Counted from the stretch's first letter, positions 4,912 to 34,631 are shown. The stretch: 64,000 nucleotides of DNA from Candidatus Micrarchaeota archaeon (GCA_023129075.1 JAGMCT010000002.1:67077-131076), one strand, 5' to 3'. Notes: generated by a model from the letters alone, not told the origin. Numbers and translations are program-made.

Positions 4912-4968
4912 TTTTTCAGGGTTATCCTTTTATTTTTTTCTATTTTTATATTATTTTGAGATGATATA

Positions 4969-5520: not shown

Positions 5521-6357
5521 TTAAAGCCATTTCAAATATTCTTTTTTCATTTTTTTTGCATCTATTTCAAGGGCAGGGGTTTCACAAATTATCCTGCCTC
5601 CATAACCGTTCTCAGCAAGCATTTTCATAAGAGGTTTATACGGCGGTTCATTGTTGCTTCCCAATACAAGATGATTCCTTTCTCCTTTTTCCGTATAATT
5701 AATCTCTGAAAAATGTGAATGAAAGTTTTTTGTAATGCCCGGAAGTTCCCTTTCCACATACTCAAAGAATTTCAAATAATCATCTTTTTTCCTGAATCTC
5801 CAGTCTTCTCTTGCATGCATATGTGCAAAATCAAAAACCGGTTTTACAAAATTAAGCTCCTGCGCCATTTCTATATTTTCTTTTAAACTGCCGAACTGAC
5901 TTTTTTTTCCTACTGTTTCAGCACCAAGGATTATTTTAAGCTTCTTTTTGTCCAATTTTTCTTTTATTTCCGCAAGCAGTTTCTTTGTTCTCTTTAAACA
6001 GATTTTTGAATCCTGTTTTTGGTAATACCCTGGATGGAAAACAGTTATTGTTGCCCCTGCAAGTGCGCTTGCCTTTGCAGAAAGATAAAGATTTCTTATG
6101 CTTGTTTCCTGTTTCTTTTTTTCTTTTGAGCAGAAATTTATCCAGTAGGGTGCATGAGAAGAAAGATGGACATTCATTTTCTTTGCCAGTTTTTTCACTT
6201 CCTTTGTTTTATCCTCCTTGAGCCATATCCCCATTCCGAATTCCATTTCCATTGCTTTGAATCCTAATTCATTACAACATTCCACCCCTTCAAGGATACC
6301 TCCTTTGCACTGAAGCGGAATCCCTGCAGGTCCGAAAAATACCTTTTGTTTTTTCAT
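5521..6357 (-). CDS. nfo: Endonuclease IV (AP endonuclease family 2, TIM barrel)
   Basis: HAPYWINF (Nfo HxPYLINL), FHPGYY (Nfo FHPGSH), and metal-ligand-like FDFAHMHA. Length 278 aa. Confidence 0.7.
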   Translation of the reverse strand: MKKQKVFFGPAGIPLQCKGGILEGVECCNELGFKAMEMEFGMGIWLKEDKTKEVKKLAKKMNVHLSSHAPYWINFCSKEKKKQETSIRNLYLSAKASALAGATITVFHPGYYQKQDSKICLKRTKKLLAEIKEKLDKKKLKIILGAETVGKKSQFGSLKENIEMAQELNFVKPVFDFAHMHAREDWRFRKKDDYLKFFEYVERELPGITKNFHSHFSEINYTEKGERNHLVLGSNNEPPYKPLMKMLAENGYGGRIICETPALEIDAKKMKKEYLKWL

Positions 6358-6392
6358 ATATCAAATAAAAGAAGACAGAATAATTAAAAGAT

Positions 6393-6464
6393 TGAGCCCG
6401 GGAGGAATCGAACCCCCTATCTATACCATGTCAAGGTAGTGTCTTACCGGTCGACTACGGGCTC
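6393..6464 (-). tRNA. tRNA-Val (anticodon GAC)
   Basis: Reverse complement GAGCCCGTAGTCGACCGGTAAGACACTACCTTGACATGGTATAGATAGGGGGTTCGATTCCTCCCGGGCTCA. The acceptor stem is 7 bp, the T-arm is GGGGG-TTCGATT-CCTCC, and the anticodon loop is UUGACAU. Confidence 0.75.
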
Positions 6465-6522
6465 TGGATTTCTAATCTTTATACATAGGTTTTTTATTCT
6501 CTGCGGTATTTTCTTGCCCCCT

Positions 6523-7914: not shown

Positions 7915-7939
7915 GTTTTCTCCTTCTTTGAAAATGGAT

Positions 7940-8040
7940 GGGCCTGTGGAGATTTGAACTCCAGACCTTCGGCTGTCTTAGACCTATATTAGAGGAGGCC
8001 ATATAAGACCGGCGCTCTAACCAGCCTGAGCTACAGGCCC
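7940..8040 (-). tRNA. Intron-containing tRNA of Ile/Met type whose deduced spliced anticodon is UAU (tRNA-Ile(UAU)). The 27-nt intron lies at the canonical 37/38 position
   Basis: Reverse complement GGGCCTGTAGCTCAGGCTGGTTAGAGCGCCGGTCTTATA[TGGCCTCCTCTAATATAGGTCTAAGAC]AGCCGAAGGTCTGGAGTTCAAATCTCCACAGGCCCA. Acceptor and T arms are perfect. The anticodon stem is CCGGU/GCCGA with one C.A mismatch. The D-arm is near-identical to the CAU tRNA at 42251. Confidence 0.6.
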
Positions 8041-8175
8041 ATTATGGAATTTTATAAGCATGTGATGATTTAAAAAGCATTCGTCTTTTCCAACAGTCCA
8101 AGTTTTAGAAGAAGAAATCTGCACATTCTCCTTTTTTCCGATAGTTTTTTTAATTCCACGCAGTTATATTCTATT

Positions 8176-8583
8176 ATGGCATTCAATTTCAAGGCTTTCA
8201 CAAAAAAAGTCCTTTCTTTGTTAAAAGGAAAAATCAGTCCAGATGAGATTACCATACTTTCACATCTTTTTAATAAGACAAGCAAAAAGAACCGCATCCT
8301 TGCAACAGGAATTCTTTCTGTCTTGAAGGTTGGCGGTGCAACAAAAGACGATATCATGAAGTTTTCCACTATTCTTGATGAGGCAAACAATAGAATAATG
8401 CAGGAGAAGCTTCCGTTCACTAAGAAAGCTGAAAAAGAACTTGCAAAGATTTTCTCAAAAACAAAATTTCCTCAGAAGGCAAGGCGCACGTTCAAGCACG
8501 ACCTTGATATACCTCTTACCTCAGCAATAAACGAAAACATCCGAAGAAAAAAGAGAGTACCACGGAAAAAATTTTCCAAGTGA
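8176..8583 (+). CDS. Hypothetical protein (135 aa) with a basic C-terminus, immediately upstream of the LAGLIDADG gene
   Basis: Coding-like purine-rich composition. The overlapping minus-strand ORF 8070..8420 looks like an antisense artefact. Confidence 0.45.
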   Translation: MAFNFKAFTKKVLSLLKGKISPDEITILSHLFNKTSKKNRILATGILSVLKVGGATKDDIMKFSTILDEANNRIMQEKLPFTKKAEKELAKIFSKTKFPQKARRTFKHDLDIPLTSAINENIRRKKRVPRKKFSK

Positions 8584-8587
8584 GTCC

Positions 8588-9160
8588 ATGAAAATAAAGC
8601 TTACACCCGAACTCTCTTACATTATAGGATTATGGGGGCCGGTAAGAACAGAAGAAGGAATAGGGGTTGAAGGAGACGATGAACTTCTCTCAATTTTTTC
8701 ATCCGAAATTATAAAATTGGGTCTTGCCGAACCTAATAGAATCCAACATCGTGAAGGAAAGATTTTTTTCTATCATTCAGCGTACAGAAAGTTTTTTCAG
8801 GATGTGTTGAAAAATAAGGCAGACAGGTTTAAGTATAAGAATAAATACATGGCAAATTATCTTGCAGGCCTTTTTGATTCATGCGGTATGATAGATAGCA
8901 AAGGACTGGTTTTTTTCACCGTCAACGACCTTGTGCTGGAATCCATACTTGATGGAATAAATTTCAAGCCCAAGAAGAAAAAACAAGGTATAATGATAAG
9001 AGACCCATTGAAATTTCTTTCATTCATAAAACCGCTTCTTAAAAAAGATTACCCTTTACTAGATAAGATTTATGGAAAAGAGCAAGATACTAAAACAGGG
9101 ATTCGTCGAAGCAGAGGTAAGAACAAGCGGAATGCTCCAAAAAAGAAAATTCAGGATTGA
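8588..9160 (+). CDS. Free-standing LAGLIDADG-family homing-endonuclease-like protein (double-motif, I-DmoI-sized). The first motif is degenerate
   Basis: Motif 2 is ANYLAGLFDSCGMIDSKG. Motif 1 is LSYIIGLWGPV at residues ~9-19, about 80 aa upstream. The 190-aa length is typical of small archaeal LAGLIDADG enzymes. Confidence 0.5.
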   Translation: MKIKLTPELSYIIGLWGPVRTEEGIGVEGDDELLSIFSSEIIKLGLAEPNRIQHREGKIFFYHSAYRKFFQDVLKNKADRFKYKNKYMANYLAGLFDSCGMIDSKGLVFFTVNDLVLESILDGINFKPKKKKQGIMIRDPLKFLSFIKPLLKKDYPLLDKIYGKEQDTKTGIRRSRGKNKRNAPKKKIQD

Positions 9161-9323
9161 TTATGAGAATATTGTTTATGGAAAACTTCCTGTTGTAGTA
9201 ATAGACATAATTCTTCCGATGGGGGAGCTCATAGGATTAGCAGGTAAATTGGATATTGCGTTGAGGTCAGGTCCAAATCTTATAATACCTCCCGGAAGGA
9301 AGGAGAGAGAGCTGGTTGTATGA
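9072..9323 (+). CDS. Small hypothetical protein (likely start at M 9132) overlapping the LAGLIDADG gene end and the thyX start
   Basis: ORF with a hydrophobic core (KLPVVVIDIILPMGELIGLAGKLDIAL). A 4-nt overlap with thyX suggests translational coupling. No family recognised. Confidence 0.3.
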   Translation: MEKSKILKQGFVEAEVRTSGMLQKRKFRIDYENIVYGKLPVVVIDIILPMGELIGLAGKLDIALRSGPNLIIPPGRKERELVV

Positions 9324-10657
9324 AGAGGAGGGTCTATACTTTAGATGGTTATCCTGAAGAGCTTATTGCAGTTGCGTTTGCAAAAACCAGCAGAAGCCCT
9401 GAACCATTTGATAAAATTGTGGCAGAACTCAATGAGATAAAATCCAGGGAATTTCATGAGAAATGGGTTGTTGGCTATGGACATTCCAGCGTCGCTGAGC
9501 ATGCTGTTATCCATCTTGCGGTTGAGAATGTTTCAAGACTGGCGGTAGAGGTTATAGAAAGCACACGGCTTGCTTCTTTCACAGAGAAGTCAACAAGATA
9601 TCAAAAGATATCTTCAGAAGAATGTTATGTTCCTGCAGAGCTTTCCTCTTCAAAACAATCCTATCTTGAAGCAAAGGAATGTTTATTCTCAGTTTATGGA
9701 ATCCTAATGTCTGATTTGATAAATTATTATACCTCGCAAAATCCAGAATTAAAGAAAAGGGCTGTTGGAGTAAAGGCGATGGACAGCGCCAGATTTCTTC
9801 TTCCAAATGCAACCCTTGCTAATGCTGGGATTACAATAAATGCAAGGTCTCTTGAGCATCTTCTTGTAAAAATGCTTTCCAATCCATTGAGGGAAGTGCA
9901 GGAGGTTGGAGAAGAGATGAAACAAGCGGCTTTGAAGACAGCTCCAACGCTGATAAAATACGCAAACGAAAACCCATATTTAGTTTCGTTGGATAAAGAA
10001 TTCCCGCAGATGTTTTCAGGGCTTTCTTCAAGCGATAAAACAAAAGTAAAACTTATTTCTTATGATGAAGAAGGGGTTGAAAAGCTGATTGCCGCCCTTG
10101 TTTACAGGTACAGCAGTCTTTCCTATGAAGAAGCCCTTGCCTATTCAAAAGACCTTAATTCATCGGAAAAAAATAAAATCCTTGAAATAGGATTAGGAGG
10201 GAGGGGAAAGTACGACCATCCGGCAAGGGAATTTGAACATACTACCTTTACCTTTGATATTATCATGGACCAGGGTGCATATTATGAATTCAAGAGGCAC
10301 AGAATGCTTTCACTTTCCTGCAAAAAGCCGGATATTAGTTTGGGCTATAGAATTCCCGAGGACATAATAAAAATAGGAAAGGAAAAGGAATTCAAAGATG
10401 TACTGCAAGAAGCAGAAGATGCATTCAGGGAAATAGAAAATGAGAATCCTTATGCAGCAGGATATATAGCAACCAATGCGCATTACAGGAGGGTTCTTGT
10501 TAGCATGAATCTCAGGGAGCTATTCCATTTCATAAGACTGAGGAGAAAACCAAATGCACATTTTACTATAAGGGAGATAGCAGAATCCATGAGGGATGAG
10601 TTGAGAAGGGTTCATCCTGAGCTTGAAAGATATCTGCTCTTGGAGGGAGAAGAATGA
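9320..10657 (+). CDS. thyX: Flavin-dependent thymidylate synthase ThyX, a tandem-duplicated (fused pseudo-dimer) form
   Basis: Two ThyX-like halves. The first is HSSVAEHAVIHLAVENVSRLAVEVIESTRLASFTEKSTRY, with the RHR motif degenerate. The second has the canonical KRHRMLSLS (RHRx7S) motif. 445 aa versus ~220-250 aa for a canonical ThyX. Confidence 0.75.
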   Translation: MKRRVYTLDGYPEELIAVAFAKTSRSPEPFDKIVAELNEIKSREFHEKWVVGYGHSSVAEHAVIHLAVENVSRLAVEVIESTRLASFTEKSTRYQKISSEECYVPAELSSSKQSYLEAKECLFSVYGILMSDLINYYTSQNPELKKRAVGVKAMDSARFLLPNATLANAGITINARSLEHLLVKMLSNPLREVQEVGEEMKQAALKTAPTLIKYANENPYLVSLDKEFPQMFSGLSSSDKTKVKLISYDEEGVEKLIAALVYRYSSLSYEEALAYSKDLNSSEKNKILEIGLGGRGKYDHPAREFEHTTFTFDIIMDQGAYYEFKRHRMLSLSCKKPDISLGYRIPEDIIKIGKEKEFKDVLQEAEDAFREIENENPYAAGYIATNAHYRRVLVSMNLRELFHFIRLRRKPNAHFTIREIAESMRDELRRVHPELERYLLLEGEE

Positions 10658-11898
10658 AGATAAGTTGTTTTGGTGCAGGAAGAGAAGTAGGCAGAAGTGC
10701 ATTTCTTCTGCAGACAGATGTTAATATACTGCTGGACCATGGAATAAAGTTATTCGGAGCAAAAAGAGGAGCAGCATACCCTCTTCCTTTTCAGGTTTCT
10801 CTGGATGCAGTGATAATCTCACATGCACATCTTGACCACAGCGGTTTTCTTCCTTATCTTTATCCTCATCCAGTCTCCTTTAATTGGTTTGCAACAAAGC
10901 AGACAGTAGAAATCTCCGAGGTGTTGTGGAATGATTCCATGAAAATAATGGGGGATGAGCTTCCTTACTCCAGAAAGGAGAAGGATTTTGCATTAAAAGC
11001 ATTCGTGCCCATAGATTATAATCAAAAGGTTTTCATAGGAAAAACCTCCTTTTATATGACTGATGCAGGGCACATTCTGGGTGCTGGAATGACGCATCTT
11101 GAGCATGAAAAGAAAAGAATAACATATACAGGTGATTTTAAGATAGAGGAAACCCTATTGCATAAAGGCGCGGTTCCGGAAAAAACAGATGTCCTTATTA
11201 TAGAAACGACCTACAGCAATAGAGAGCATCCCAAAAGAGATGAAGCGGAAAAAACAATTATAGAAAAAGTGAAACAAACACTTGAAAAAGGAGGTTCTGT
11301 TTTGTTTCCTTCATTTGCTGTTGGAAGGTCTCAGGAATTAATAATGCTCATAAGGAAATATCTTCCTGATGTTCCTCTTTATCTTGATGGTATGGCAAGA
11401 ACAATAACCAACATCTATTCCAAAAATTCTTATCTTCTGAATGACGGGGAAAAATTCAAGGAGGATTTGCTTTCGGTAAATTTTATTGAGTCATCAGGAC
11501 AGAGGAGAAAGGCGGTTTCCAAGCCCTCCGTTATTATCTCAACAGCAGGCATGCTTCAGGGAGGTCCGGCACTAGGTTATCTCTTTAACATCAATGCTGA
11601 TTCAAGGATAATCTTTACTGGATATAATATTGAGGGGACCAACGGATGGAATCTCTTAAATCACGGGAAGGTTGAGATAGATGGAAACATGCTTGATGTT
11701 TCTCTTCCTGTGGATTACATAGATTTGAGCGCCCACGCAGGAAAAACAGACCTTTTGGATTACATTAAAAAAGCACAACCCTCAAAGATAATATTAAATC
11801 ATGGGGACAACCCCCAGGAATTCGGGCAGGAATTAAGGGAAAAAGGATATGATGCTGTTGCCCCGAAGATTGGTGACATTATCGAGGTGAATATATGA
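10654..11898 (+). CDS. Beta-CASP family metallo-beta-lactamase ribonuclease (aCPSF2/RNase J-like, no KH domains)
   Basis: Motifs HAHLDHSG, TDAGHILG, IIETTYS, HGDN and LSAHAG (beta-CASP motif B). Confidence 0.75.
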   Translation: MKISCFGAGREVGRSAFLLQTDVNILLDHGIKLFGAKRGAAYPLPFQVSLDAVIISHAHLDHSGFLPYLYPHPVSFNWFATKQTVEISEVLWNDSMKIMGDELPYSRKEKDFALKAFVPIDYNQKVFIGKTSFYMTDAGHILGAGMTHLEHEKKRITYTGDFKIEETLLHKGAVPEKTDVLIIETTYSNREHPKRDEAEKTIIEKVKQTLEKGGSVLFPSFAVGRSQELIMLIRKYLPDVPLYLDGMARTITNIYSKNSYLLNDGEKFKEDLLSVNFIESSGQRRKAVSKPSVIISTAGMLQGGPALGYLFNINADSRIIFTGYNIEGTNGWNLLNHGKVEIDGNMLDVSLPVDYIDLSAHAGKTDLLDYIKKAQPSKIILNHGDNPQEFGQELREKGYDAVAPKIGDIIEVNI

Positions 11899-13127
11899 AG
11901 GCGGTTATACTTGTAGGTGGAGAAGGAATTAGGATGAGGCCATTTACATTCACAAGGCCAAAAGGAATGCTTTATGCAGGAGGAAAGCCATTGCTTTATC
12001 ATTTACTAAAGCAGGTGAAAGGCGCAGGGATAAAAGAAGCAATAATAATTGTGAGAAGCAATAAGGAAAAGATAATAGATTATTTTTCAAAAAAGAAAAA
12101 TTCACCAGGGCTTAAAATTTCTTTTGTAACCCAGGGTAAAAAAACAGGCACTGCAGCCGCCCTGCTTTACGTGGAGAAAATGCTGGATTGCCCCTTTATT
12201 GTATTGGCTGGCGACACCTATATAGAAACAAAGGACATTTCTTCACTTATAAAAGCATATCATTCCTACAAGGACAAATGTCTTCTTGTAAAGGAGGCAG
12301 AGAACCCTTCACGCTATGGTGTTGTTGAAAAGAAAAAAGGAAAGGTTTTCAACATAATCGAAAAGCCAAAGAAGCCGAAATCAACTCTCGTGAGCCTTTC
12401 TTCTTATGTTTTTGACCCATGCATCTTCAACGAATTAAAAAAGATAAAGAAATCTGCAAGTGGAGAGTATGAGATTACTCCGGTTCTGAAAGGCGCAAGG
12501 GTTGTTCATCTGAAAGGGGTTTGGATAGATATAACATATCCATGGGACCTGTTCAGATTGAATGATTATCTTTTGAGAAGAATGAAGGCAAAGGCCGGGA
12601 AGATTGTAAATTCAACAATAAAAGGCAAGGTAATAATGGAGGAAGGAGCAGAGATAATTAATAGTTATGTTGATGGAAATTTATATATTGGAAAGAATTC
12701 AAGGGTCGGCCCGTTTTCCTATATAAGAGGTTCAGTATCTATCGGAGAAAACTGCGAAATCGGGGATTCCGCAACCATAAAAAATTCTATTCTTTTTGAC
12801 AATGTAAAGGCAAAACATCTTGTGTATATAGGAGACAGTATAATAGGAGACAATGTAAATTTTGGAGCAGGAACGCAGATTGCCAACTACCGTTTTGATT
12901 CCGGGAAGATAAATGTTTATACAGAAAAGGGATGGGCAAACAGCGGAACCGCAAAACTCGGCGCCTTCATAGGAGATAATGTAAAGTTCGGTGTTCTTTC
13001 CTGCACCATGCCAGGGAAGATAATAGAACCTGACTGCTGGATAAGTTCAGGTGTTGTGGTGAATAAGAACATCAAAAGAGGCTCAAAACTCTTCATAAAG
13101 CAGGAGATACATATTATGAAGGATTGA
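11895..13127 (+). CDS. Bifunctional sugar-1-phosphate nucleotidylyltransferase / hexapeptide acetyltransferase (GlmU-like, UDP-GlcNAc synthesis type)
   Basis: N-terminal NTP-transferase motif AVILVGGEGIRMRPFT...KPL. The C-terminus is a left-handed beta-helix of hexapeptide repeats (IGDSATIKNSILFDNVKA..., IGDNVNFGAGTQI). Confidence 0.7.
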   Translation: MKAVILVGGEGIRMRPFTFTRPKGMLYAGGKPLLYHLLKQVKGAGIKEAIIIVRSNKEKIIDYFSKKKNSPGLKISFVTQGKKTGTAAALLYVEKMLDCPFIVLAGDTYIETKDISSLIKAYHSYKDKCLLVKEAENPSRYGVVEKKKGKVFNIIEKPKKPKSTLVSLSSYVFDPCIFNELKKIKKSASGEYEITPVLKGARVVHLKGVWIDITYPWDLFRLNDYLLRRMKAKAGKIVNSTIKGKVIMEEGAEIINSYVDGNLYIGKNSRVGPFSYIRGSVSIGENCEIGDSATIKNSILFDNVKAKHLVYIGDSIIGDNVNFGAGTQIANYRFDSGKINVYTEKGWANSGTAKLGAFIGDNVKFGVLSCTMPGKIIEPDCWISSGVVVNKNIKRGSKLFIKQEIHIMKD

Positions 13128-13819
13128 GAGGTGTTTCAATATATCTTATAGTCGGGATAGACCCCGGAATAAAAACCGCATTCTGTGCTCTTAATCTTAA
13201 GGGAACAATAGTTGCAGAGGAATCCAAAAAAGAAATGGGTGAAGACAAGATAATCAGAAAAATAATGGAAATAGGAAACCCCTCTCTTGTTGCAACCGAT
13301 GTTTTTCCACCCCCTTCTTTTGTTTCAAAGGTTGCGGCAAGGTTTAATGTAAGGGTGTTTTACCCAAAAAAAAATCTTAAGCTTCTGCACAAGAAGGCTG
13401 TTTCACCTGGTTTGAAGGACCCGCACATAAGGGATGCAAGGGCCGCAGCCCTGAAAGCATTCCATTTTTATGAAAATAGATTAAGGCAGATTGAAGGGAT
13501 GAAGCATCCGGAAGCAGACCTTTTGAAGCACATGGTTATACAGGGCTTCCAGCTCAAAAGTGCATTGATTTCCCTTCAGAAAAAGCAGGAAGAGAAACCC
13601 AGCCCCAAAACAAAAAAGAAAAAATCCCTGAAAAAGGACAATGAAAGAGTCCTTGAGCTGGAAGAAGAGAACGCTTCCCTTAGAAAATACATAAACCAGC
13701 TGAAGATTAGGGTTCTCAACCTTGAAAAGGAATTAAAGAAAACAAGGAGTTCTGTTCATAGAGAGATATTAAGGGAAAAGGAGATAAGAAAACTAAAAAG
13801 AAAGCGAAGTCAGCATTAG
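13124..13819 (+). CDS. RNase-H-fold (YqgF/RuvC-like, DUF460-type) protein with a C-terminal basic coiled-coil
   Basis: N-terminal LIVGIDPGIKTAFCAL resembles the resolvase-like GIDxG motif. The C-terminal half is charged coiled-coil. Confidence 0.4.
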   Translation: MRGVSIYLIVGIDPGIKTAFCALNLKGTIVAEESKKEMGEDKIIRKIMEIGNPSLVATDVFPPPSFVSKVAARFNVRVFYPKKNLKLLHKKAVSPGLKDPHIRDARAAALKAFHFYENRLRQIEGMKHPEADLLKHMVIQGFQLKSALISLQKKQEEKPSPKTKKKKSLKKDNERVLELEEENASLRKYINQLKIRVLNLEKELKKTRSSVHREILREKEIRKLKRKRSQH

Positions 13820-13833
13820 GAGAGTGTTGTTGA

Positions 13834-13866
13834 GTATCGGATAAAACTAAATATGCTCTATCCGAT
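13834..13866. terminator. Perfect 9-bp inverted repeat (TATCGGATA / TATCCGATA, 15-nt loop) between convergent genes, followed by a T-run. Putative bidirectional terminator
   Basis: The palindrome is visible by eye in the 95-bp convergent intergenic region. tttatttttt follows. Confidence 0.5.
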
Positions 13867-13914
13867 ATAGAATGACCATGGCAATAAACGAAGTAGTAAT
13901 CTTTCCATCCACAT

Positions 13915-14946
13915 TTATTTTTTATTTTCCAAACCATCAACATTGAATTTCCTTATCTTTACCCCTGCTTCATTCAAAAGCCTGAATGCACCTTCTGTAA
14001 TGGAATACCTTGCATTGTAAACTACCTCTTTTATTCCTGCATTTATTATCATTCTTGTGCAGTAAAGGCATGGGGAAAAGGTGGTATATATTGTACCTCC
14101 ATTAATGGATATTCCATGATATGCTGCCTGCACTATTGAATTTTCCTCTGCATGCGAACAATAACATTCCTCAAGGTTTTTTCCGCTCTCAGCAAATGAA
14201 TTGCACCTTGGGCAGCCTCCTTCATTGCAGTTGGTTGTTCCCCTCGGAGTGCCGTTATATCCTGTTGATATAATTCTTTTATCTCTTACTATTATTGCTG
14301 CTATCTGCCTTTTCATGCAGTTGCTTCTTGTTGCAACCTGTTTTGCTATACTCATAAAGTATTCATCCCACCCAGGCCTCTCAGGGTTAATCTCTTTCAT
14401 AACCTCTTTTAGGATTTCATTAATTCCAGTATAAAGTTCCTCAAGAGTGCCGTTGTTTTCTATAATTAAATCTGCTTTTGAAAATGTTGCTTTGAGGTTT
14501 TGGGCATTCGGGTCATCGCTTTCCATTTCTTTTTTATCCATTTCTAAGAATCTTTCATAGGTTTCAGCATCCCCTTTTCTTTCCCTATTTTTCATTCTCT
14601 CAAATCTTATTTCCGGTTTTGCATCAACATGAAAAAGGAAAAAATTCATAAGCTTTGCAAGCTCATCAACCTCTGCAGGATGCCTTATGGAATCTACAAC
14701 ATAGTTCCTGTCATTGAGCAATAATTCTTTTACTTTTACTGCGCATGCTCCTGCCCCGAGTTTTTCTCTTAATTCATTCCCCGTTGCTACCATATTTTCT
14801 CTGGTTTTTTCCTTTCCTTCAAGGTCTAGTTCTCTTCTTATGACATCCGAGAGGGAAAGCGGATAAAATCCTCTTTTTTTAAGGTTTTCCAGAACCGTTC
14901 CTTTTCCTGCACAGTTTGTGCCTGTTAATCCTATTATAATCTGCAT
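13915..14946 (-). CDS. Fusion protein with an N-terminal P-loop NMP/dNMP-kinase-like (or dephospho-CoA-kinase-like) domain and a C-terminal dCMP deaminase (cytidine/deoxycytidylate deaminase zinc-binding fold)
   Basis: P-loop GLTGTNCAGKGT. Deaminase motifs HAEENSI and PCLYCTRMI (HAE...PCxxC). The start at M 14946 is preferred over the track's 14991. Confidence 0.7.
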   Translation of the reverse strand: MQIIIGLTGTNCAGKGTVLENLKKRGFYPLSLSDVIRRELDLEGKEKTRENMVATGNELREKLGAGACAVKVKELLLNDRNYVVDSIRHPAEVDELAKLMNFFLFHVDAKPEIRFERMKNRERKGDAETYERFLEMDKKEMESDDPNAQNLKATFSKADLIIENNGTLEELYTGINEILKEVMKEINPERPGWDEYFMSIAKQVATRSNCMKRQIAAIIVRDKRIISTGYNGTPRGTTNCNEGGCPRCNSFAESGKNLEECYCSHAEENSIVQAAYHGISINGGTIYTTFSPCLYCTRMIINAGIKEVVYNARYSITEGAFRLLNEAGVKIRKFNVDGLENKK

Positions 14947-15066
14947 TTTATCACCTTTAAAATATGTAAAATGTAAAATAATCGCACTCATTTTTTAAGG
15001 CTTGTTTTTTTATCCCCTTTTTCCTAAATCAGATAAGTTTTAAAACAATCTGTTGGAAATAGGAGT

Positions 15067-15879
15067 ATGCTCAGGCGTTTACTGTTAGGTTTACTTCTAC
15101 TCTCATTTGTTTCAGCTGATTTCATCCCAAGAAATCTTGATGTTTTTGTCACGGTAAATGAAGACGGCACGGCTTACATTGTCGAACAATTGGATTTTCT
15201 TGTGACCGGAAGTTACCATCTTTCTTTGTATGAAACAGGAATACCTAAGAACGACCTTGCTTCGTGGGCAACACTTACAGGACTTAATGATGTGAGATAC
15301 CATGTAGACAGCAGGGTAGTGGACATTCAGAATCAGGTTATAGGACCGCAGCCTCTTTCAAGATGCAATCCTATTGAGGATACATGCTATGGCCAGCTGA
15401 TAATTACTTATACTGCTGCACCGTATTATACTGATGAAGGAATTACTGAAGGTACAGGGGTTGTTTTCATTGATTCTTACAAACCAAGAACAAAACAATA
15501 TATACTTAACTCAAGGGCGTTTGTTTTTGAATTCAGCCAGAAAGAAGACATTATCCTAAGTGAGATAACAACACTCACACTTGAGGTTCCTGAAGGAAGT
15601 GTTGTTGTTGAGGTTAAACCTTTGCCAGAGGATTTTGGAGGGTTGAAACCTCCTTTCAAGGAAGTCTCTTACTCATGGTCTAATACAATTCTTCCTAATT
15701 TTTCCTTTATTTTTGAAAAGGAAGGAAGCCTTGACAGTGAAATCACTGCGTTTTTTCTTGGGTTCCAAGGCGAAGTTTTCTCCTGGCTTTCAGGGGAATA
15801 TGGATTGGCAATAATTATTCTTGTTGCCATACTGCTGGTTTCCTATTTTTATCTAACGAGGTCGCGGAAGGGTGTTTAG
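15067..15879 (+). CDS. Secreted protein with a C-terminal TM anchor and basic tail (surface-anchored hypothetical)
   Basis: N-terminal signal peptide MLRRLLLGLLLLSFVSA. C-terminal TM IIILVAILLVSYFYL followed by TRSRKGV. Confidence 0.5.
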   Translation: MLRRLLLGLLLLSFVSADFIPRNLDVFVTVNEDGTAYIVEQLDFLVTGSYHLSLYETGIPKNDLASWATLTGLNDVRYHVDSRVVDIQNQVIGPQPLSRCNPIEDTCYGQLIITYTAAPYYTDEGITEGTGVVFIDSYKPRTKQYILNSRAFVFEFSQKEDIILSEITTLTLEVPEGSVVVEVKPLPEDFGGLKPPFKEVSYSWSNTILPNFSFIFEKEGSLDSEITAFFLGFQGEVFSWLSGEYGLAIIILVAILLVSYFYLTRSRKGV

Positions 15880-17259
15880 ATGGGAGTCGAAGCTTATAAG
15901 GCAGAATTATTAAGCATTCTTAAGGAAAAACCCAGTTTCTCATCTTTGGATATGGCTACTGAAAAGAAGGACGGGTTGATGAGTGCTGCATTTTATCTTG
16001 AAAAAGAAGGGCTTGTTAAGATTGAAAAAAAAGAGCATACGGCCCATCCTCTAACCAAGGAAGGAAAGGAGTTTCTTGAGCACGGTTTTCCCGAATCACA
16101 ACTTCTTGAAAAGGATGGGGCAGAATTAAGCGAATTAACAGAAAAGCAGAAAAAAATAGGGATAATGTGGGCTAAACGCTATGGTTGGATTGCGATAAAG
16201 GATGGAAGAATTCATGTTCTTAAATCCAAGGAGGTGCACCCTCTGAAGGAAGCACTGAAAGCCCCCTCAAAGGCAAAGAAAGAGCATCTGGAATTTATTA
16301 AGAAAAGAGGCCTCATAAAAGAGACCTCTGAGATCGAATATAAGATATTTATCACAGAAAAAGGAAAACATACTGAGTTTGAAGAAAAAGGAGGAATAGG
16401 AAATCTTACACATTCTATTATTGTTTCCAAACAACCCGGAGAGCTTAGATTCAGGAGATATAACATCACGAAGGCGGAGCCTGCACGAATAGGAAAAATC
16501 CATCATCTTTCTGCATTTATTTATAAGGTTAAAAGGGTTTTTGAAGACCTTGGTTTTGAAGAGATGGAAGGCAATCTTGTTGAGAGCACCTTTTGGAATT
16601 TTGATGCACTTTTTCAGCCCCAGGACCATCCTGCAAGGGAACTTGCAGATACCTTTTATTTGGAGGGGGAATCCGAACTGCCGGAAGAAAAGCTCGTTGA
16701 AAGGGTTAAGAAAAGCCATGAAAAATACTGGGGATACGAATGGAGTGAAAAGGAAGCAAAAAGAACGGTTCTAAGGACACATACAACTCCAGTAAGCGGA
16801 AGATATCTGTCAAAGATAAAGAAAGGAGGAAAGAAGTATTTTTCAATCGGAAGCGTTTTCAGAAATGAAGCAACAGATTTCAAACATCTTGCAGAATTCC
16901 GCCAGGTTGAAGGAATAATTGCATGGGAAGGTGCAAACTTCAGGCACCTTTTAGGTATTCTCAAGGAGTTCTACAAAAGACTTGGATTTGAGAAGATTCG
17001 TTTCAGGCCAAGCTATTTTCCATACACTGAACCAAGCCTGGAGATAGAGGTTTTCTTTGAAGAGAGGAATGAGTGGATTGAGCTTGGAGGCGCAGGTATT
17101 TTCAGGCCAGAGATGACCAAGCCATTATGCGATATTTATCCTGTTCTTGCATGGGGCCTTAGTCTTGAGAGGCCCCTCATGCTTTTTGAGGACCTGAAGG
17201 ATATAAGGACATTTTACAAAAACGACCTTGATTGGTTGAACAAACCAGGTGTTATATAA
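15880..17259 (+). CDS. pheS: Phenylalanine--tRNA ligase alpha subunit (archaeal type)
   Basis: Class II aaRS motifs FRNEATDFKHLAEFRQVEG and GAGIFRPE. Archaeal N-terminal wH extension. Confidence 0.85.
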   Translation: MGVEAYKAELLSILKEKPSFSSLDMATEKKDGLMSAAFYLEKEGLVKIEKKEHTAHPLTKEGKEFLEHGFPESQLLEKDGAELSELTEKQKKIGIMWAKRYGWIAIKDGRIHVLKSKEVHPLKEALKAPSKAKKEHLEFIKKRGLIKETSEIEYKIFITEKGKHTEFEEKGGIGNLTHSIIVSKQPGELRFRRYNITKAEPARIGKIHHLSAFIYKVKRVFEDLGFEEMEGNLVESTFWNFDALFQPQDHPARELADTFYLEGESELPEEKLVERVKKSHEKYWGYEWSEKEAKRTVLRTHTTPVSGRYLSKIKKGGKKYFSIGSVFRNEATDFKHLAEFRQVEGIIAWEGANFRHLLGILKEFYKRLGFEKIRFRPSYFPYTEPSLEIEVFFEERNEWIELGGAGIFRPEMTKPLCDIYPVLAWGLSLERPLMLFEDLKDIRTFYKNDLDWLNKPGVI

Positions 17260-23078: not shown

Positions 23079-23747
23079 TCACTGTAATTCAAGGAAGAAA
23101 TAATATGTTTCTGTATGACCTGCAGTATCTGTGGTTGGCACCATCAACTGATAATCTGCAACATGACCATCAAGAGCTGTTGCAGCTCCAGTAGTATCTA
23201 TCTTTACACAGAATGCAAAGTCAACTTCTGCACCATCGTTTCCATCATCTACTACACCGGTTTCCCAGCCCTGTACATCTGTTGCCGTCTCCACATTAGT
23301 AAGAGCTGCTCCTGCTATTTCATAGTTCTCAAAGGTTGTATATGTTGCTGTTGCATTGTCCTTTGCAGCTCCAAAGCTCCATACTGTGTTTAATGAACTG
23401 TTGGTTGCTGTTGAAACAGAGCTCCAGTCAAAGGATGCATCCTGAGATACACAAACCTCTCCACCATCTGCTTGGTCCCATGACCATGCAAACATTATAG
23501 AGGTGCTGTCAAGACCCAACACAAGGTTACCAGTTACGTTACCATAGTAACCTGCCCACTTCTGTGTGGATGTGTTACCAGTTAATACGATCCCGGTTAC
23601 GTTTCCTCCTTCTGTTAAGTCGGTTGCAGTTGTACCAGATGTATAACTACCCTCTCCTTTTGTTTCAATACTAGAAGCGTCCTGTATTGCAAACCCCAAT
23701 CCTACAAAAGTGAGCAATACTATTCCAAATACTATCGCCTTATTCAT
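23079..23747 (-). CDS. Secreted ~200-aa protein that is a stand-alone copy of the N-terminal domain of the 2238-aa giant protein
   Basis: N-terminal signal/anchor MNKAIVFGIVLLTFVGLGFA. The shared blocks are DLTEGGNVTGIVLTGNTSTQKWAGYYGNVTG (giant protein DLTEGGNITAVNLQGNDTTQRWAGFYGNISIG) and ADYQLMVP...YYFFLELQ (giant protein SDYQLILP...DYWLFADVQ). Confidence 0.6.
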   Translation of the reverse strand: MNKAIVFGIVLLTFVGLGFAIQDASSIETKGEGSYTSGTTATDLTEGGNVTGIVLTGNTSTQKWAGYYGNVTGNLVLGLDSTSIMFAWSWDQADGGEVCVSQDASFDWSSVSTATNSSLNTVWSFGAAKDNATATYTTFENYEIAGAALTNVETATDVQGWETGVVDDGNDGAEVDFAFCVKIDTTGAATALDGHVADYQLMVPTTDTAGHTETYYFFLELQ

Positions 23748-23811
23748 ATCTAATCACCAAGGAAAATAAGAAATGAAAGTATTTAAATACTTTTCTGAAT
23801 AAACTCTCGTT

Positions 23812-25500
23812 ATGAGACGATTTCTCACATTTTTAATGGGTTTAATGGTTTTAGTGAACCTCTCAAGCGCATTGGTTGTAGTAAACTCACAGGATGGACT
23901 GGACGTTTCCTCTGCAGCATTTTATGCTATACTTACAGAAGAAAAACTAGTGTTTTTCGCTCCAGGTTCCAGTGGAATTGCAGAGCTGGTTCTTATTGGA
24001 GAAGGTAAAGAAGTATATTACATAGAATCCAGCGATAATGCAGTTTACGTAGGTTTCAAGGGTTCTATGGAGCAGAAAGGCAATACTGTTGAACAGTATT
24101 CTTCAGAGGACCCGCTTTCAACAAATCGTTATCTTGCAGAAAAATCCGGAGCAGAGAATTTTATTCTTGCAGACCCTGCATACGGCACCACAATTGTTTC
24201 AACGATGCCGTATGGCAAACTCACAAACTCCTTTCTTTTGTTTGTGACCGAGGCAAATGCCGGCCAGGTTGCAGACTTCCTTAAGGGAAAAGGAGAGATC
24301 CTTGTTTACGGCTATGTTGATGATGCAGTTCTTGAATCGCTTGATGAAAATAATATAAATTATGACAGGATTTACAATGAGGATATCTATGAAGACAACC
24401 TTGCTCTGGTTGACAAATACTTTGAAATAAACCCGGATAAAAAGCAGGTTGTATTTGCAGGCGGTGAATACCTTGAAGACAGCATCATAACAGGAGAAGA
24501 CCCGATTATTCTTGCCTCAGAGGTTCTTCCTACTGCAGTTGAGAATTATATAAAAGAAAAAGCCAGGGAAGGACAAATAACAGTGGGAGTAATTATTGAT
24601 AATAGGTATACTGCTGCTTTGGGCAGTATTATGCGTAAGATAAATGAAGAAGCAGGAAACAAGATTTTTTCTTTATTCCTTAAGTTCGGCCAGACACTTC
24701 CAGGAGTAAACCAGGGAGTGAATCCGCTTGTTACATTTCCCCTTCCTCATGTTATCCTGAATCTGGTAGTAAAGAATATGGAATATAACACAGCAACAAA
24801 AACCCTTGACATAACCTATGAAAACAAAGGAAATGTTCCGATTTACTACAAATCAAGCATGAATCTGTTTTTGGACGGGGAATCCTTTAAATCAGTAGGA
24901 GATGAAGACGCAGAGACAATAGGAAAAGGAGGGATAACTGGTGTTTCCTATTCTCTTGAGGTAGAAGAAGGGGAGCTTACAACGAATATAACAGTGCTTT
25001 ACGGTTCCTCAAAGAATTCTTTTGAAAAAGGTTTTATACAGGATTGGAATATAGGGAGAATAGATTATATTGATATTTCTGAACTTAGCATGTCAGAAGC
25101 GGTTTACAATCCTGAAACCGATGAGCTCTCAATAAGGTTCACGAATTCAGGAGAAGAGAGTGTTTATTTCAAGGTTTCTTCTGCATATCTTATTGAAGGA
25201 ATCTCAACAGCTGTTGAAAGCGAAGGACAGTATGACCTTGAACCCAATAGTGCAAGGGTTGTAAAGCTCACCAGTCTCCTTGTTCCAAAGGACAAGCTTG
25301 AAGAGGTCGAGATGAAGGCTACAGCCAATTATGGGGGGAGGGAAGGTTTCCTTGTAAAGACAGCCGAAACCGATGTTGAGATAAAACAGCCGGAGATGGA
25401 CCTTACCATTCTGTGGATAGTGCTCGCGGTAATCCTGGTTTTGGTAGTTGCTTACTTCCTGTTTTCAGGAAAGGAGAAGAACAGAAGTGAGAAAAGATGA
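23812..25500 (+). CDS. Large secreted surface protein with a C-terminal TM anchor and basic tail (S-layer/surface-protein-like architecture)
   Basis: Signal peptide MRRFLTFLMGLMVLVNLSSA. C-terminal LTILWIVLAVILVLVVAYFLF + SGKEKNRSEKR. Confidence 0.55.
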   Translation: MRRFLTFLMGLMVLVNLSSALVVVNSQDGLDVSSAAFYAILTEEKLVFFAPGSSGIAELVLIGEGKEVYYIESSDNAVYVGFKGSMEQKGNTVEQYSSEDPLSTNRYLAEKSGAENFILADPAYGTTIVSTMPYGKLTNSFLLFVTEANAGQVADFLKGKGEILVYGYVDDAVLESLDENNINYDRIYNEDIYEDNLALVDKYFEINPDKKQVVFAGGEYLEDSIITGEDPIILASEVLPTAVENYIKEKAREGQITVGVIIDNRYTAALGSIMRKINEEAGNKIFSLFLKFGQTLPGVNQGVNPLVTFPLPHVILNLVVKNMEYNTATKTLDITYENKGNVPIYYKSSMNLFLDGESFKSVGDEDAETIGKGGITGVSYSLEVEEGELTTNITVLYGSSKNSFEKGFIQDWNIGRIDYIDISELSMSEAVYNPETDELSIRFTNSGEESVYFKVSSAYLIEGISTAVESEGQYDLEPNSARVVKLTSLLVPKDKLEEVEMKATANYGGREGFLVKTAETDVEIKQPEMDLTILWIVLAVILVLVVAYFLFSGKEKNRSEKR

Positions 25501-31142: not shown

Positions 31143-34100
31143 ATGACTAATATTCAAAGAAAAGTTTCAGGTGATAAGGTAAGGGAGGGAGGCTCAACTA
31201 AGTCCCTTCAGATAATAAATGGAGGACGGCAGGGTTCATCCCAACAGAGGGACCCATTTGGAAGGAAAGCCTATAAATTGCTGGAAAATGCAGTAGGTTA
31301 TACCGGAAAGATTGGAACAACGGGTTTTTTCAAGAATATTCTCTTGGGGGGTGCAGGAGCAGGTCTCCTTTATGGTTCTTATCAGGGTCTTAAGGCTATT
31401 CCATCCAGCGCAGAACAAATTATTACAGGAATTAAAGCTACAACAATATCCGCAACCTCGTGGTTTGAGGAACTTACTTTAAGTTCTGCAATGAATGGCG
31501 CAAAAGGAGTAGCCGGGAAGGCGGTTGCCTATGCTTCAATGTCAAATATACTGACTGCAGCAGCTTATCCAGCATATGTGCTTACTCCGATAATTGCAGC
31601 AGGAAAGGTAACAAGAGACGTAAACAAGGCGATGGGAGAAAGAAGGCTGCTTGCAGAGAAACAAAAGAGGTCATTAACCGGCATAGGAGACATCGGAAGG
31701 ATTGGATGGGAGACAGTCAAAAGTGCTTCACTTTATTCAATGATTGCAGCAACTGTAATCTCAGTTCCGACCGTAATTGCTGTGGCTGTAGGAGCAACAA
31801 TTCCAGGGAGTGTTACTGCCCTTGGAATATTTGCTGTTTTGGCTGAAACCGCAGGTCCATTGTATGTAGGTATGAAAGGTGCTGAACTTGGAAGAGTGGT
31901 TCTTAAAAAGATAACTCCGAAGTGCCTGGAAAAATACCTTTCTGATAAAATAGATGAGCATTATTATGGAAACAGGCATTGGTTTTCTGCTGGAAGCAGA
32001 TGGGCAAGGGTTCAGGAAAAGATGTCCTTTTCTGGCTCTCAGAATAGGGTGCAGGTTAATGAAAGTGGTGATGGGCAGTCTTCTCAAGCCGAGGAACAGG
32101 CAGTTGAGCAGCACACAACCCCCATCTTTGGCGCCTTAAAACAAAAAATATTAAACAAACTAAAAGGTGTTTTTTCCAGAGGAAAAGAACAACAGACCAT
32201 TGGAAATTTTTTCGATACCTCTGAATCCTTGAAAAGTAGGATATTAAACAAAACAGGAGGCTTTTTTTCCAAAAGAAAAATCCTAAAGGCAAGCGACGAA
32301 AATCTGGTTGAACTCCACCAAGAGGCAAAAAAGGAGCTCAAAAGACTAAGAAAAACCCTAAAAAATGCTGAAAAAAATGTTGAGAAATCTGTTAGGAAGG
32401 GATATACAGATAACATAAAGAAGCTAGAAAAGGATATAGAGAGCCTAAGGGTTCAGATTACTTCGCTTGGAAAAGAAAAAACGACCTTCCAAACCCGTTT
32501 GGACGAAGAAATACAGCAGAAAGAGAATTTACTTGGAGAGATAACAAAACTTTCCGAAGAATACAATAAAAGCAGGGAAGAACTCAAAGTCAAAAATAAT
32601 TGCATCTCAGAATTAGAACAGCAGATGAAGGAAGTACAAGATACTTTTAACCAGTCCCTTGAGGATTCAAAGAAAGAGATAACTGATTTGAAAATTCAGT
32701 TGACTGAAGTAGAAAAACTGAAACAAACATTAACAGATGATGCAGACCAGCTCAAGAGCCTGCAAAAAGCCACCAGAAATACACTAATAACTAAGGAAAA
32801 AAAGATTTCAGAATTGGAAGACAAATTGCGTGATTTGGAGCTGGACATAGGAAATATCACCCACCTCTCTGATGGAAGAAACAGGAGAATTGAAGAGTTA
32901 AAATCACAGCTGGAAAAAGCGAACAGTGAGAAGGAAACTGCTGTTTTTGAATTAGATCTGTTCAATGCAAGATATGAAGCTGCACAGGAAGAGCTAAAAT
33001 ATGGACAGGAAAAGATTTCTGCATTGGAAATACAGGTAAGCGAATTGGAATTACAGAAAGGAACAGGGTTGTCTGCTGATGAAAAGGACAAGAAGATAGG
33101 AGAGTTAATAGAAAAATTGAAAGCCATGAAAGGTATAGTTAAGCTTGCACAAATTGATAAGCGTGAACTGGAGAAGAAAATTGATTCTCTGAATCAGAAA
33201 ATGGATAAGAAGGTTGAGAAAGCAGCAGGTGAATTGGTCTCTGAGCTGGACAGAACCAAGAAATTACTTGAAGAAACTGAATATCAAATAGTAACTCTTG
33301 CAAATGAAAAATTAGAATTACAAAAGGAAAATGAAAGATTAAAAACTCAGATAGGCCCAACAGATGAAGAGATTGCACGGCTTATAGCTCAGAATGCCTC
33401 AAAGAATGAAATAATTGCACAACTTCAAAAAGAGATGGATGACCTTAACCAGCAAATAGAAGATAAATATATGGAGCTTGATGAGGGGTCCTTTATAAGC
33501 GAGGAAAAGCTTCCTGAAAATGAGAACCTAAGCGAGGAAGAGCTTTCTGGAAATGAGAACCCCCCTTCACTTTCTGAAGCAGAAAAAGGAAATTTAATTG
33601 AGATGGACGACCTTAGGATGCAAATTAGTGAACTTGAAAAAAGCAAGGAGCAAAACACCGAGAAAATACAAGAGTTAGTAAGCAGGGAAAAGAAATACGG
33701 GGAGGAAGTCTCAAAACTTGAAGAACAGCTTAAAGATAAAGACATGGAATTCTCAAATATCCAAGCAGATTACAATTACCTTAATGATATGCTTAACCAG
33801 ATGACATGTCAAAATAAAGGAGGAAAAAAAGAACAATTAGCTAAAATATTGGAACTTACTAAACAGGTTAAAGAAAAAGAAAAAGAATTGTTAGATTTTG
33901 GTTCAAGAATGCTCAAACGGGAGAATGAGTTTAATCAAATCAAGCAGAAAAAAACAAAAATAGAGGAGCAATTGGAAGAAGCTAATAAAAAGATTGATGA
34001 GCTGAATTCCAAACTCTCCGAAACTAACTGCGAGGGAGAAAATTCCGGATGCAAAGACGAAAAAAATTGCGGGGAGAAGAAGAATTCAATCCTTTCTGAT

Positions 34101-34631
34101 AAGTCGAAAAGAACCAACGGCTCCTTTGATGGTAGGGATCCAAACGGGAACGAGAGTTTTACTGCTGAAGAGCTGAAACAATTTGACAGCATGAAGGAAG
34201 ATGTTCCTAAAAAAGAAACAAAGAATGTTGAAAATAAAAAACCCAACGAACCTTTTGTTGAAGGAATTATTGTTGATACGAGTAAAGAAGGAAATCAGGA
34301 TACTGAGAAAAAAGAGAAAGAAACCCAGAAACCAAAGAGAAATGGGGTGGAAACCCTTTTTGATGATAATGGAGGGGTACTTCCGGATGACCCTGTGGAA
34401 AGGCAAAAAATTCTTGACAAAGTAGGAGATGAACTTGGATTAGGCGACGACAATGTAGAGGTTACCCCTGAGAGCGTCGCAGAAGCACAAAAGGCTCTGG
34501 ATAAAGAAGACGAAGAGGAAGAAAAAAAGAAGAAAGAAGAAAAGAAACCGAAAAACGGAGAAGAGATGACAATTGAGGAAATATTTTCTGAGTTTAGAAA
34601 CCAAGGAGAAGAAGAGGACGAAGATACATAA
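31143..34631 (+). CDS. 1162-aa membrane-anchored coiled-coil protein. The N-terminal ~280 aa has several hydrophobic Gly/Ala-rich helices. It is followed by ~800 aa of continuous coiled coil and an acidic C-terminus, with no NTPase motif
   Basis: Hydrophobic segments (ILLGGAGAGLLYGSY..., IAATVISVPTVIAVAVGATIPGSVTALGIFAVLAETAG). Heptad-rich E/K/L/Q sequence from ~aa 330 to 1000. C-terminal EEEDEDT. Confidence 0.6.
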   Translation: MTNIQRKVSGDKVREGGSTKSLQIINGGRQGSSQQRDPFGRKAYKLLENAVGYTGKIGTTGFFKNILLGGAGAGLLYGSYQGLKAIPSSAEQIITGIKATTISATSWFEELTLSSAMNGAKGVAGKAVAYASMSNILTAAAYPAYVLTPIIAAGKVTRDVNKAMGERRLLAEKQKRSLTGIGDIGRIGWETVKSASLYSMIAATVISVPTVIAVAVGATIPGSVTALGIFAVLAETAGPLYVGMKGAELGRVVLKKITPKCLEKYLSDKIDEHYYGNRHWFSAGSRWARVQEKMSFSGSQNRVQVNESGDGQSSQAEEQAVEQHTTPIFGALKQKILNKLKGVFSRGKEQQTIGNFFDTSESLKSRILNKTGGFFSKRKILKASDENLVELHQEAKKELKRLRKTLKNAEKNVEKSVRKGYTDNIKKLEKDIESLRVQITSLGKEKTTFQTRLDEEIQQKENLLGEITKLSEEYNKSREELKVKNNCISELEQQMKEVQDTFNQSLEDSKKEITDLKIQLTEVEKLKQTLTDDADQLKSLQKATRNTLITKEKKISELEDKLRDLELDIGNITHLSDGRNRRIEELKSQLEKANSEKETAVFELDLFNARYEAAQEELKYGQEKISALEIQVSELELQKGTGLSADEKDKKIGELIEKLKAMKGIVKLAQIDKRELEKKIDSLNQKMDKKVEKAAGELVSELDRTKKLLEETEYQIVTLANEKLELQKENERLKTQIGPTDEEIARLIAQNASKNEIIAQLQKEMDDLNQQIEDKYMELDEGSFISEEKLPENENLSEEELSGNENPPSLSEAEKGNLIEMDDLRMQISELEKSKEQNTEKIQELVSREKKYGEEVSKLEEQLKDKDMEFSNIQADYNYLNDMLNQMTCQNKGGKKEQLAKILELTKQVKEKEKELLDFGSRMLKRENEFNQIKQKKTKIEEQLEEANKKIDELNSKLSETNCEGENSGCKDEKNCGEKKNSILSDKSKRTNGSFDGRDPNGNESFTAEELKQFDSMKEDVPKKETKNVENKKPNEPFVEGIIVDTSKEGNQDTEKKEKETQKPKRNGVETLFDDNGGVLPDDPVERQKILDKVGDELGLGDDNVEVTPESVAEAQKALDKEDEEEEKKKKEEKKPKNGEEMTIEEIFSEFRNQGEEEDEDT

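Follow-up and report, generated by a model that had tools for sequence, protein, structure and literature searches.

Archaea of the DPANN group live in attachment to host cells, and their genomes code for numerous giant surface proteins, whose retention and organisation on the cell are poorly understood. A stretch of 64,000 nucleotides from Candidatus Micrarchaeota archaeon (GCA_023129075.1, JAGMCT010000002.1:67077-131076), hereafter the window, raises this question through two of its genes, both on the minus strand. One, at 23079-23747, encodes a small protein of 222 amino acids, and the other, at 45619-52335, encodes a giant surface protein of 2238 amino acids. A reading of the sequence alone, referred to here as the original prediction, had proposed that the small protein is a secreted, free-standing paralogue of the giant's N-terminal domain, and that the two define an uncharacterised, modular surface domain which may act in secretion, sorting, assembly or receptor binding. 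In this report, we describe that domain, which we call the TEGGN domain after a motif in its N-terminal part. It defines a large archaeal family matched by no Pfam, NCBIfam or PDB entry, and its architectures and gene neighbourhoods lead us to infer, with a little more confidence than doubt, that it serves a conserved surface-display cassette as a common module for assembly or anchoring.

The first question is whether the small protein and the giant N-terminus truly share a domain of about 200 amino acids. In a BLASTP comparison run with composition-based statistics, residues 43-222 of the small protein align significantly with residues 25-219 of the giant at 28% identity (E=9e-13), all remaining segments having E>1. 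A profile of 30 small-protein homologues, from which the giant was left out to avoid circularity, matches the giant at E=3.3e-19 in two pieces, namely the TEGGN..WAG.YGN block and the C-terminal half, the 'GEVC' strand region between them being diverged. The three motif strings that had been quoted for the pair are all found as written in the sequences. No other open reading frame (ORF) of the window matches the TEGGN profile, and only the small protein and the giant carry the domain. The motif W[QA]G[YF][YF]G[ND][VI][TS] is not a widespread low-complexity string, a concern raised with the original prediction: across 185,579 species genomes, 397 of its 425 genomic matches (93%) encode relatives of the small protein. 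A chance or compositional likeness between two Thr/Gly/Asn-rich surface proteins, both acidic, rich in N-x-S/T sequons and just 28% identical, is excluded by E-values that hold despite composition-based statistics and in a giant-free profile, by the family membership of the motif matches, and by the fact that the giant domain matches 340 of 455 family domains at E<1e-3. The pair is nevertheless not the close one that the term paralogue had implied. The giant domain is 28.8% identical to the small protein of its own genome and about 23-32% identical to essentially every family member, being no closer to its own small protein than to the others; it is an old, divergent member rather than a recent duplicate.

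The small protein was identified by ORF translation, matches the family profile at E=1e-79 and is identical to the NCBI hypothetical protein KAW38_00885 (Candidatus Micrarchaeota archaeon). Its mature form has a computed mass of ~21 kDa, an isoelectric point (pI) of ~4.05, 2 Cys and 5 N-x-S/T sequons. Residues 1-21 (MNKAIVFGIVLLTFVGLGFA|I; 23685-23747, minus strand) form a putative Sec-type signal peptide with a hydrophobic segment at 1-19 and a cleavage site placed from the sequence. This N-terminus, consisting of MNK, a hydrophobic stretch and GFA|I, looks like a substrate of Sec and signal peptidase I; across the family, A-x-A-like residues at -3/-1 are followed by polar residues, as judged by eye, and Ala at -1 of the putative site is kept in 90% of 431 non-redundant members. 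The hydrophobic segment and this conserved Ala support the proposal that the small protein is exported and extracellular. A type IV pilin or archaellin-like identity was ruled out, the signal not being of class III in an alignment judged by eye. Downstream lies a conserved N-terminal arm, residues 22-61 (23565-23684, minus strand), in which family conservation reveals I-x-x-A-x-[VI], a semi-conserved [RK]-[WY] and TEGGN[VI][ST]. The folded core, residues 62-222 (23082-23564, minus strand), was delimited by AlphaFold and covariation; it begins with WAGYYGN and contains a Cys99-Cys180 pair. Its aromatic last strand, YYFFLEL, stops one residue short of the stop codon.

The giant, also read as an ORF translation, has a computed mass of ~245 kDa, a pI of ~4.07, 83 Cys and 51 sequons. 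Its signal peptide is followed by the N-terminal TEGGN domain, by Cys-rich acidic double-disulfide repeats and then by Ig-like/CARDB/CarboxypepD_reg-like domains. The TEGGN domain occupies residues 25-219 (51679-52263, minus strand), as defined by BLASTP, the profile and alignment with other proteins that carry the domain at the N-terminus. Its TEGGN motif starts 4-5 residues past the putative signal-peptide cleavage site; the domain lacks both the first ~20 arm residues and the Cys pair, and the polypeptide runs on beyond the last strand. The Cys-rich acidic stretches lie at residues ~640-1200 and 1810-1920, and four of them resemble the acidic double-disulfide repeat NF033662 of NCBIfam at E=8.6e-10, just under the cutoff of the model. 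Weak matches to Big_13, CARDB and CarboxypepD_reg were also found. A hydropathy scan places three hydrophobic segments at the C-terminal end (2137-2155, 2169-2187 and 2202-2220), followed by a Lys-rich tail; this candidate membrane-anchor region maps to 45676-45927 on the minus strand. Since the predicted membrane-spanning segments are at the C-terminus, the TEGGN copy would stand at the membrane-distal end of the chain. Beside the giant, a gene at 44360-45673 (minus strand) encodes a 437-amino-acid protein with a transglutaminase core (PF01841, with a faint DUF553 match). Its start overlaps the giant stop by ~55 nt, which suggests that the two genes are co-transcribed, and the product could be an enzyme that cleaves or cross-links the giant.

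How far does the domain extend beyond this genome? An exhaustive HMMER search of 1.84 billion cluster representatives retrieves 1444 proteins at E<=1e-3, of which 300 reach E<=1e-30. According to source names and genome records, the DPANN carriers are Micrarchaeota, Woesearchaeota, Pacearchaeota, Nanoarchaeota and Nanobdellota, and the remaining carriers are Methanoperedens, anaerobic methanotrophic (ANME)-2 archaea, Methanosarcinaceae and the cultured Methanogenium cariaci JCM 10550. One protein (L039, the same as P0240), from a locus with a GC content of 23%, goes under 'uncultured Methanosarcinales archaeon' in one record but under 'Candidatus Woesearchaeota archaeon' in a second, and some taxon labels of third-party-annotation (TPA) metagenome-assembled genomes (MAGs) in the family are therefore unreliable. 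The named methanogen records stand despite this.

The description of the domain as uncharacterised holds throughout. The small protein matches no Pfam or NCBIfam family at E<=1; 121 family members scanned singly yield no recurring Pfam or NCBIfam family and no S-layer family of Pfam; nine multidomain members have no Pfam match over their C-terminal ~200 amino acids; and the family profile finds none of 177,635 distinct PDB sequences at E<=10 (hmmsearch). A literature search on the motif strings and on CWB2 in archaea found no description of the TEGGN family. At minimum, the family merits a curated domain model.

The proteins that carry the domain fall into three architectures. The best 172 members comprise 119 stand-alone proteins (~206-280 amino acids) and 53 multidomain proteins (350-5626 amino acids), and all 53 of the latter have the domain at their extreme C-terminus. 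A census of 201 copies by locus, covering 83 fetched related loci and the window, counts 159 stand-alone copies (~79%), 27 C-terminal (~13%), 12 N-terminal (~6%) and 3 partial ones. An N-terminal position, which the original prediction had taken as characteristic, is thus that of a minority, of which the giant is an unusually large representative. Proteins of the C-terminal class are anchorless and contain Laminin_G_3, FBA, Beta_helix/NosD, Big_7 and Ig-like modules. In the N-terminal class, a transmembrane segment is predicted further along the chain in 9 of 12 proteins, the xGGN motif begins a few residues at most from the putative site of signal-peptide cleavage, and the first ~20 arm residues are absent. 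The members of this class were identified through their genomic loci and not through a search with the giant domain, as residues 1-240 of the giant used as a query give no match at E<=1e-3 in an index of 5.8 billion proteins. Hydrophobic, signal-like segments are present at the N-terminus of the stand-alone and N-terminal-class proteins examined. The domain ends within two residues of the protein C-terminus in 426 of 438 copies (97%), the exceptions being N-terminal-class proteins, and no protein among the best 172 members and the related loci carries two TEGGN domains in tandem. The view of a modular, extracellular domain is supported.

Conservation was calculated from the 431 non-redundant members. 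Among the most conserved residues are G48 of TEGGN (99%) and W64 and G69 of WAGYYG (100% each); L77, D130, T of the D.DS..NTF block and YYF of the last strand are also highly conserved. Two sequons are kept, GGN[VI][ST] in 79% and YGN[VI][ST] in 84% of members. Separate subfamilies use three alternative, co-varying Cys pairs, and the Cys columns are the top pair in mutual information with average product correction (MI-APC); such co-variation is as expected for an extracellular domain. In the same analysis of the 431 sequences, the first position of TEGGN (T/A) is coupled to the A/Q of WAG, a signal that is inseparable from subfamily structure and does not tell intramolecular from intermolecular packing of the arm.

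Two AlphaFold models were obtained, the first from 31 sequences with a predicted local distance difference test (pLDDT) of 77, and the second for the mature protein from 121 sequences, with a pLDDT of 85.4 and a predicted TM-score (pTM) of 0.81. Both contain a confident core of ~10 beta strands and two short helices (pLDDT ~85-98 in the second model, where the C-terminal strand is folded into the monomer with a pLDDT of ~85-89). The arm has no secondary structure in either model, with a pLDDT below 50 for residues 21-60 in the first and of 54-70 for mature residues 1-40 in the second. The TEGGN segment is among the most conserved parts of the family, yet its pLDDT is ~35-58 in both models. Foldseek searches of the PDB yielded no analogue of the first model (best E=0.76, TM<=0.23) or the second (best E=0.59, TM<=0.25), and a search of BFVD gave none either (best E=0.26). 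No pilin is among the PDB matches of either model. These searches rule out an Ig-like pilin, a jelly roll such as that of cannulae, threads or TasA, and an S-layer domain of the DUF1608/PF05123 type as identities of the domain.

The neighbourhood of the small gene offers a further clue. On the opposite side of a 64-bp spacer, at 23812-25500 on the plus strand, lies a gene for a protein of 562 amino acids, here termed S, whose homologues stand beside small TEGGN genes in related loci. S consists of a signal peptide, three CWB2-like repeats (~20-290), a CARDB/Ig-like beta-sandwich (~310-520), a transmembrane helix at 526-544, which is predicted to be its single, C-terminal membrane span, and a short basic tail. 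The profile of the S family (alignment A3) matches the CWB2 region of Clostridioides difficile Cwp6 (5j72) over ~155 columns at E=2.3e-9. Pfam recognises CW_binding_2 (PF04122) in 5 of 18 S proteins, with a best E-value of 8.5e-7, and CARDB in 3 of 18; when the S of the window is scanned alone, CW_binding_2 is below threshold. A zinc ribbon follows the transmembrane helix, on the cytoplasmic side, in 6 of the 18 proteins, the S of the window having the short basic tail only. A distant relationship between TEGGN and S was considered and rejected, hhalign giving a probability of 16%, and the two are taken as unrelated.

Homologues of S adjoin small TEGGN genes in Micrarchaeota, Woesearchaeota and methanogens, the S of the window matching the copy in locus L001 at E=3e-75. 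Forty of 84 loci hold a homologue of S at a distance of 10 kb or less, a count that is a lower bound, many contigs ending nearby. The small gene is directly upstream of S on the same strand in 31 of these 40 loci, with a gap of less than 400 bp in 23, and it is divergent from S, as in the window, in five. Where the two are co-located, they are probably co-transcribed. If C and N denote genes of the C-terminal and N-terminal classes, the order (C) - small - S - (N or C) is seen repeatedly, with examples in Micrarchaeota, Methanoperedens and Methanogenium; L031 and L041 display the full four-gene order, and L008, L011 and L033 display small - S - N.

What, then, might the TEGGN domain do? On balance, we favour an assembly or anchoring module, because one constant domain is found at the C-terminus of variable, adhesin-like proteins, because the same domain is found at the outer end of membrane-anchored chains, and because free small copies are co-located with the CWB2-like membrane protein S. 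The cassette would comprise one or more small free TEGGN proteins; S, with its single membrane span, three CWB2-like repeats and Ig-like domains; anchorless lectin, beta-helix or Ig proteins bearing TEGGN at their very C-terminus; and N-terminal-TEGGN proteins, mostly anchored by transmembrane segments further down, of which the giant would be an oversized example. TEGGN domains may bind each other, S or both, and thereby hold variable adhesin-type modules at the cell surface. CWB2-like repeats are an anchoring module in Firmicutes. The likely contact elements would be the conserved N-terminal arm, which is unplaced in the models, and the free C-terminal strand; an arm that is conserved and of low predicted confidence fits a segment that becomes ordered only on binding of a partner. 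Among the roles listed in the original prediction, assembly, and with it anchoring, is the one best backed by architecture and gene neighbourhood, whereas receptor binding and sorting are less well backed.

Several observations weigh against an assembly or anchoring module. About half of the loci have no S within 10 kb, and many Woesearchaeota loci hold four to six small paralogues with S not nearby, so that a neighbouring S gene is not a requirement. A glycosylated, flexible linker could equally account for the low confidence of the arm, two conserved N-x-S/T sequons being situated in or beside it, and the constraint at the C-terminus could be purely structural, for instance if the last strand is buried. 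In the window itself, the giant domain is divergent and lies 20 kb from the small/S pair.

A more specific proposal is that the small proteins polymerise head-to-tail into a polar filament of a new fold, each donating its arm or its C-terminal aromatic strand to the next. C-terminal-class proteins would then be tip adhesins, small proteins the shaft and N-terminal-class proteins, including the giant, the membrane-anchored base, with S as a co-anchor or an assembly or anchoring factor, in a system common to DPANN symbionts, Methanosarcinales and Methanomicrobiales. The three architectures correspond neatly to tip, shaft and base. The freedom of the C-terminus in 97% of copies, with exceptions in the mostly transmembrane-anchored N-terminal class, is in keeping with strand donation, as are the loss of the first part of the arm in that class, the lack of tandem copies per chain, the clustering of small paralogues (up to six in 20 kb) and a conserved arm that finds no place in the monomer model. 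Chaperone-usher pilins, type V pilins, TasA, archaeal threads, bundling pili and cannulae are all represented in the PDB, but Foldseek detects no similarity to solved pilins at E<0.5. The C-terminal strand, moreover, folds into its own monomer with good confidence, the TEGGN gene neighbourhoods show no recurrent chaperone, usher, sortase or dedicated protease, and no filament has been linked to TEGGN genes. As the architecture fits but neither fold similarity nor accessory genes lend support, we regard such a filament as unlikely.

Alternatively, the domain could be a lectin-like head that binds a ligand or receptor, be it a glycan or a molecule on the host surface, the small protein being a soluble or S-layer-associated lectin and the giant presenting the same head at its tip. 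The membrane-distal position of the giant domain is compatible with such a role; the invariant G48, W64, G69 and D130, together with the D.DS..NTF block, might make up a binding site or a Ca2+ site; and the repeats of the partner S resemble CWB2, a polysaccharide-binding module in C. difficile. However, TEGGN is the constant element of the C-terminal class, whereas the bona fide lectin modules, LamG and FBA, vary. Neither a free C-terminus in nearly all copies nor tight synteny with a membrane anchor protein is expected of a binding head, and Foldseek finds no fold similarity to any lectin. A lectin-like head seems to us rather improbable.

A C-terminal secretion or sorting domain, read by a dedicated export or attachment machinery and possibly then removed, by analogy with the type IX C-terminal domain (CTD), would explain why many large, mutually unrelated cargo proteins end in the same domain, but it is very doubtful given that ~79% of copies have no cargo, that the stand-alone and N-terminal-class proteins examined have N-terminal signal-like segments of their own, that the N-terminal class has the domain at the wrong end, and that no translocon, ATPase or sortase-like gene recurs nearby; known sorting domains are, in addition, much smaller than ~200 amino acids. 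The lectin head and the sorting domain each fit fewer facts than the assembly reading.

If the TEGGN domain is indeed an assembly or anchoring element, it offers a way to predict which large proteins share the cell surface, and it is a specific candidate for a new archaeal surface structure that can be put to the test. One unannotated domain links small secreted proteins, anchorless adhesin-like giants and membrane-anchored giants, along with a conserved CWB2-like partner. The same cassette is present, as small - S - N at locus L048, in the cultured M. cariaci JCM 10550, which makes experiments feasible.

Comparison with known systems places these features in context. The CWB2 proteins of C. 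difficile, including SlpA, the Cwp paralogues and Cwp6, likewise combine one constant module with many variable surface proteins, and the neighbour S is homologous to their triple CWB2 module. The constant module here, however, is TEGGN, which is unrelated to CWB2, and the CWB2-like repeats reside on a separate membrane protein; the carriers, moreover, are archaea not known to have a polysaccharide II (PSII)-type wall polymer. Strand-exchange pili, such as chaperone-usher and type V pili, archaeal threads, bundling pili and cannulae, share with the TEGGN system small secreted subunits and their paralogues, large adhesins bearing a subunit-like C-terminal domain, a membrane-anchored member and conserved terminal segments. 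They differ in that TEGGN has no similarity to the fold of any solved pilin and in that its cassette includes no chaperone, usher, protease or sortase. By sequence and fold, the TEGGN domain is not a member of the CWB2/Cwp or pilus families. In Bacteroidota, beta-helix, lectin and Ig cargo proteins likewise share a constant domain at their extreme C-terminus, the type IX secretion CTD, which measures roughly 80-100 amino acids; TEGGN, by contrast, is ~200 amino acids long, archaeal, mostly stand-alone and also N-terminal, with no type IX components nearby.

Two previously reported archaeal proteins also invite comparison. The DPANN dark-matter cluster cls.004306/NEQ255 is a secreted protein encoded beside an Ig-like predicted S-layer protein, arCOG02487 (PMC6393860, PMC5898192). 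As in the small/S pair, a small secreted protein, here from DPANN, has an Ig-like surface protein as its neighbour, and, compared by description only, the two pairs may be the same; cls.004306 is reported as restricted to DPANN, whereas the TEGGN family is also found in Methanosarcinales and Methanomicrobiales. The S-layer protein of a Micrarchaeota member, SLP_Mh, is a secreted and glycosylated protein of ~101 kDa and PF05123 type (bioRxiv 10.1101/2021.04.28.441871). It comes from the same phylum as the small protein, which is likewise predicted to be secreted, but the two differ in size and family. The idea that the small protein is the known Micrarchaeota S-layer subunit was ruled out on these differences and on the lack of any S-layer profile match.

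The spacer between the small gene and S contains a TATA-like, perfect 12-bp palindrome, GTATTTAAATAC, at 23779-23790, read directly from the sequence. Its centre is ~27 nt upstream of the ATG of S (23812, plus strand) and ~37 nt upstream of the ATG of the small gene (23747, minus strand). The usual position of the archaeal TATA element is ~-26 from the transcription start, and with this position as a guide, GTATTTAAATAC is a candidate shared bidirectional promoter. Given such a promoter, the S mRNA would be nearly leaderless, while the small gene would have a Shine-Dalgarno-like element, GGTGAT.

The third most frequent neighbour of TEGGN genes, found in 25 of 83 loci, is an ArsR/HTH_20-type protein of ~200 amino acids (for example, L058 11286-11894 and L004 7459-8004). 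In L004, the stop of the ArsR-like gene overlaps the TEGGN start codon. Neighbours of this kind suggest dedicated regulation of individual paralogue sets. The same locus (Woesearchaeota, JAPPOH010000014.1) holds six TEGGN paralogues in 16.7 kb (2183-15946), arranged pairwise, each pair being followed by a paralogous secreted, sequon-rich protein of 305 or 313 amino acids that ends in NGTVIFQAEAS. An ArsR-like helix-turn-helix (HTH) gene precedes some of these genes, and one S homologue stands at the end. The 305/313-amino-acid family has no counterpart in the window or in L001-L003.

Two other long ORFs of the window deserve mention. The first, at 52501-63999 on the plus strand, is divergently oriented from the giant gene, encodes at least 3819 amino acids from a start at about 52543 and runs past the end of the window. 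It has a hydrophobic N-terminus, 13-15 NosD/Beta_helix stretches, two Laminin_G_3 domains and a TSP3 repeat. Its composition resembles that of the C-terminal-class TEGGN proteins, with several of which it shares segments of 25-37% identity, and in view of this composition it is predicted to end in a TEGGN domain itself; its C-terminus is outside the window, and two public contigs also end inside the ORF. The second, at 31143-34631 on the plus strand, encodes a protein of 1162 amino acids with a hydrophobic N-terminal third and a long coiled coil. Its only matches are sub-threshold ones of the SMC/Rad50 type, and it appears to be unrelated to the TEGGN family.

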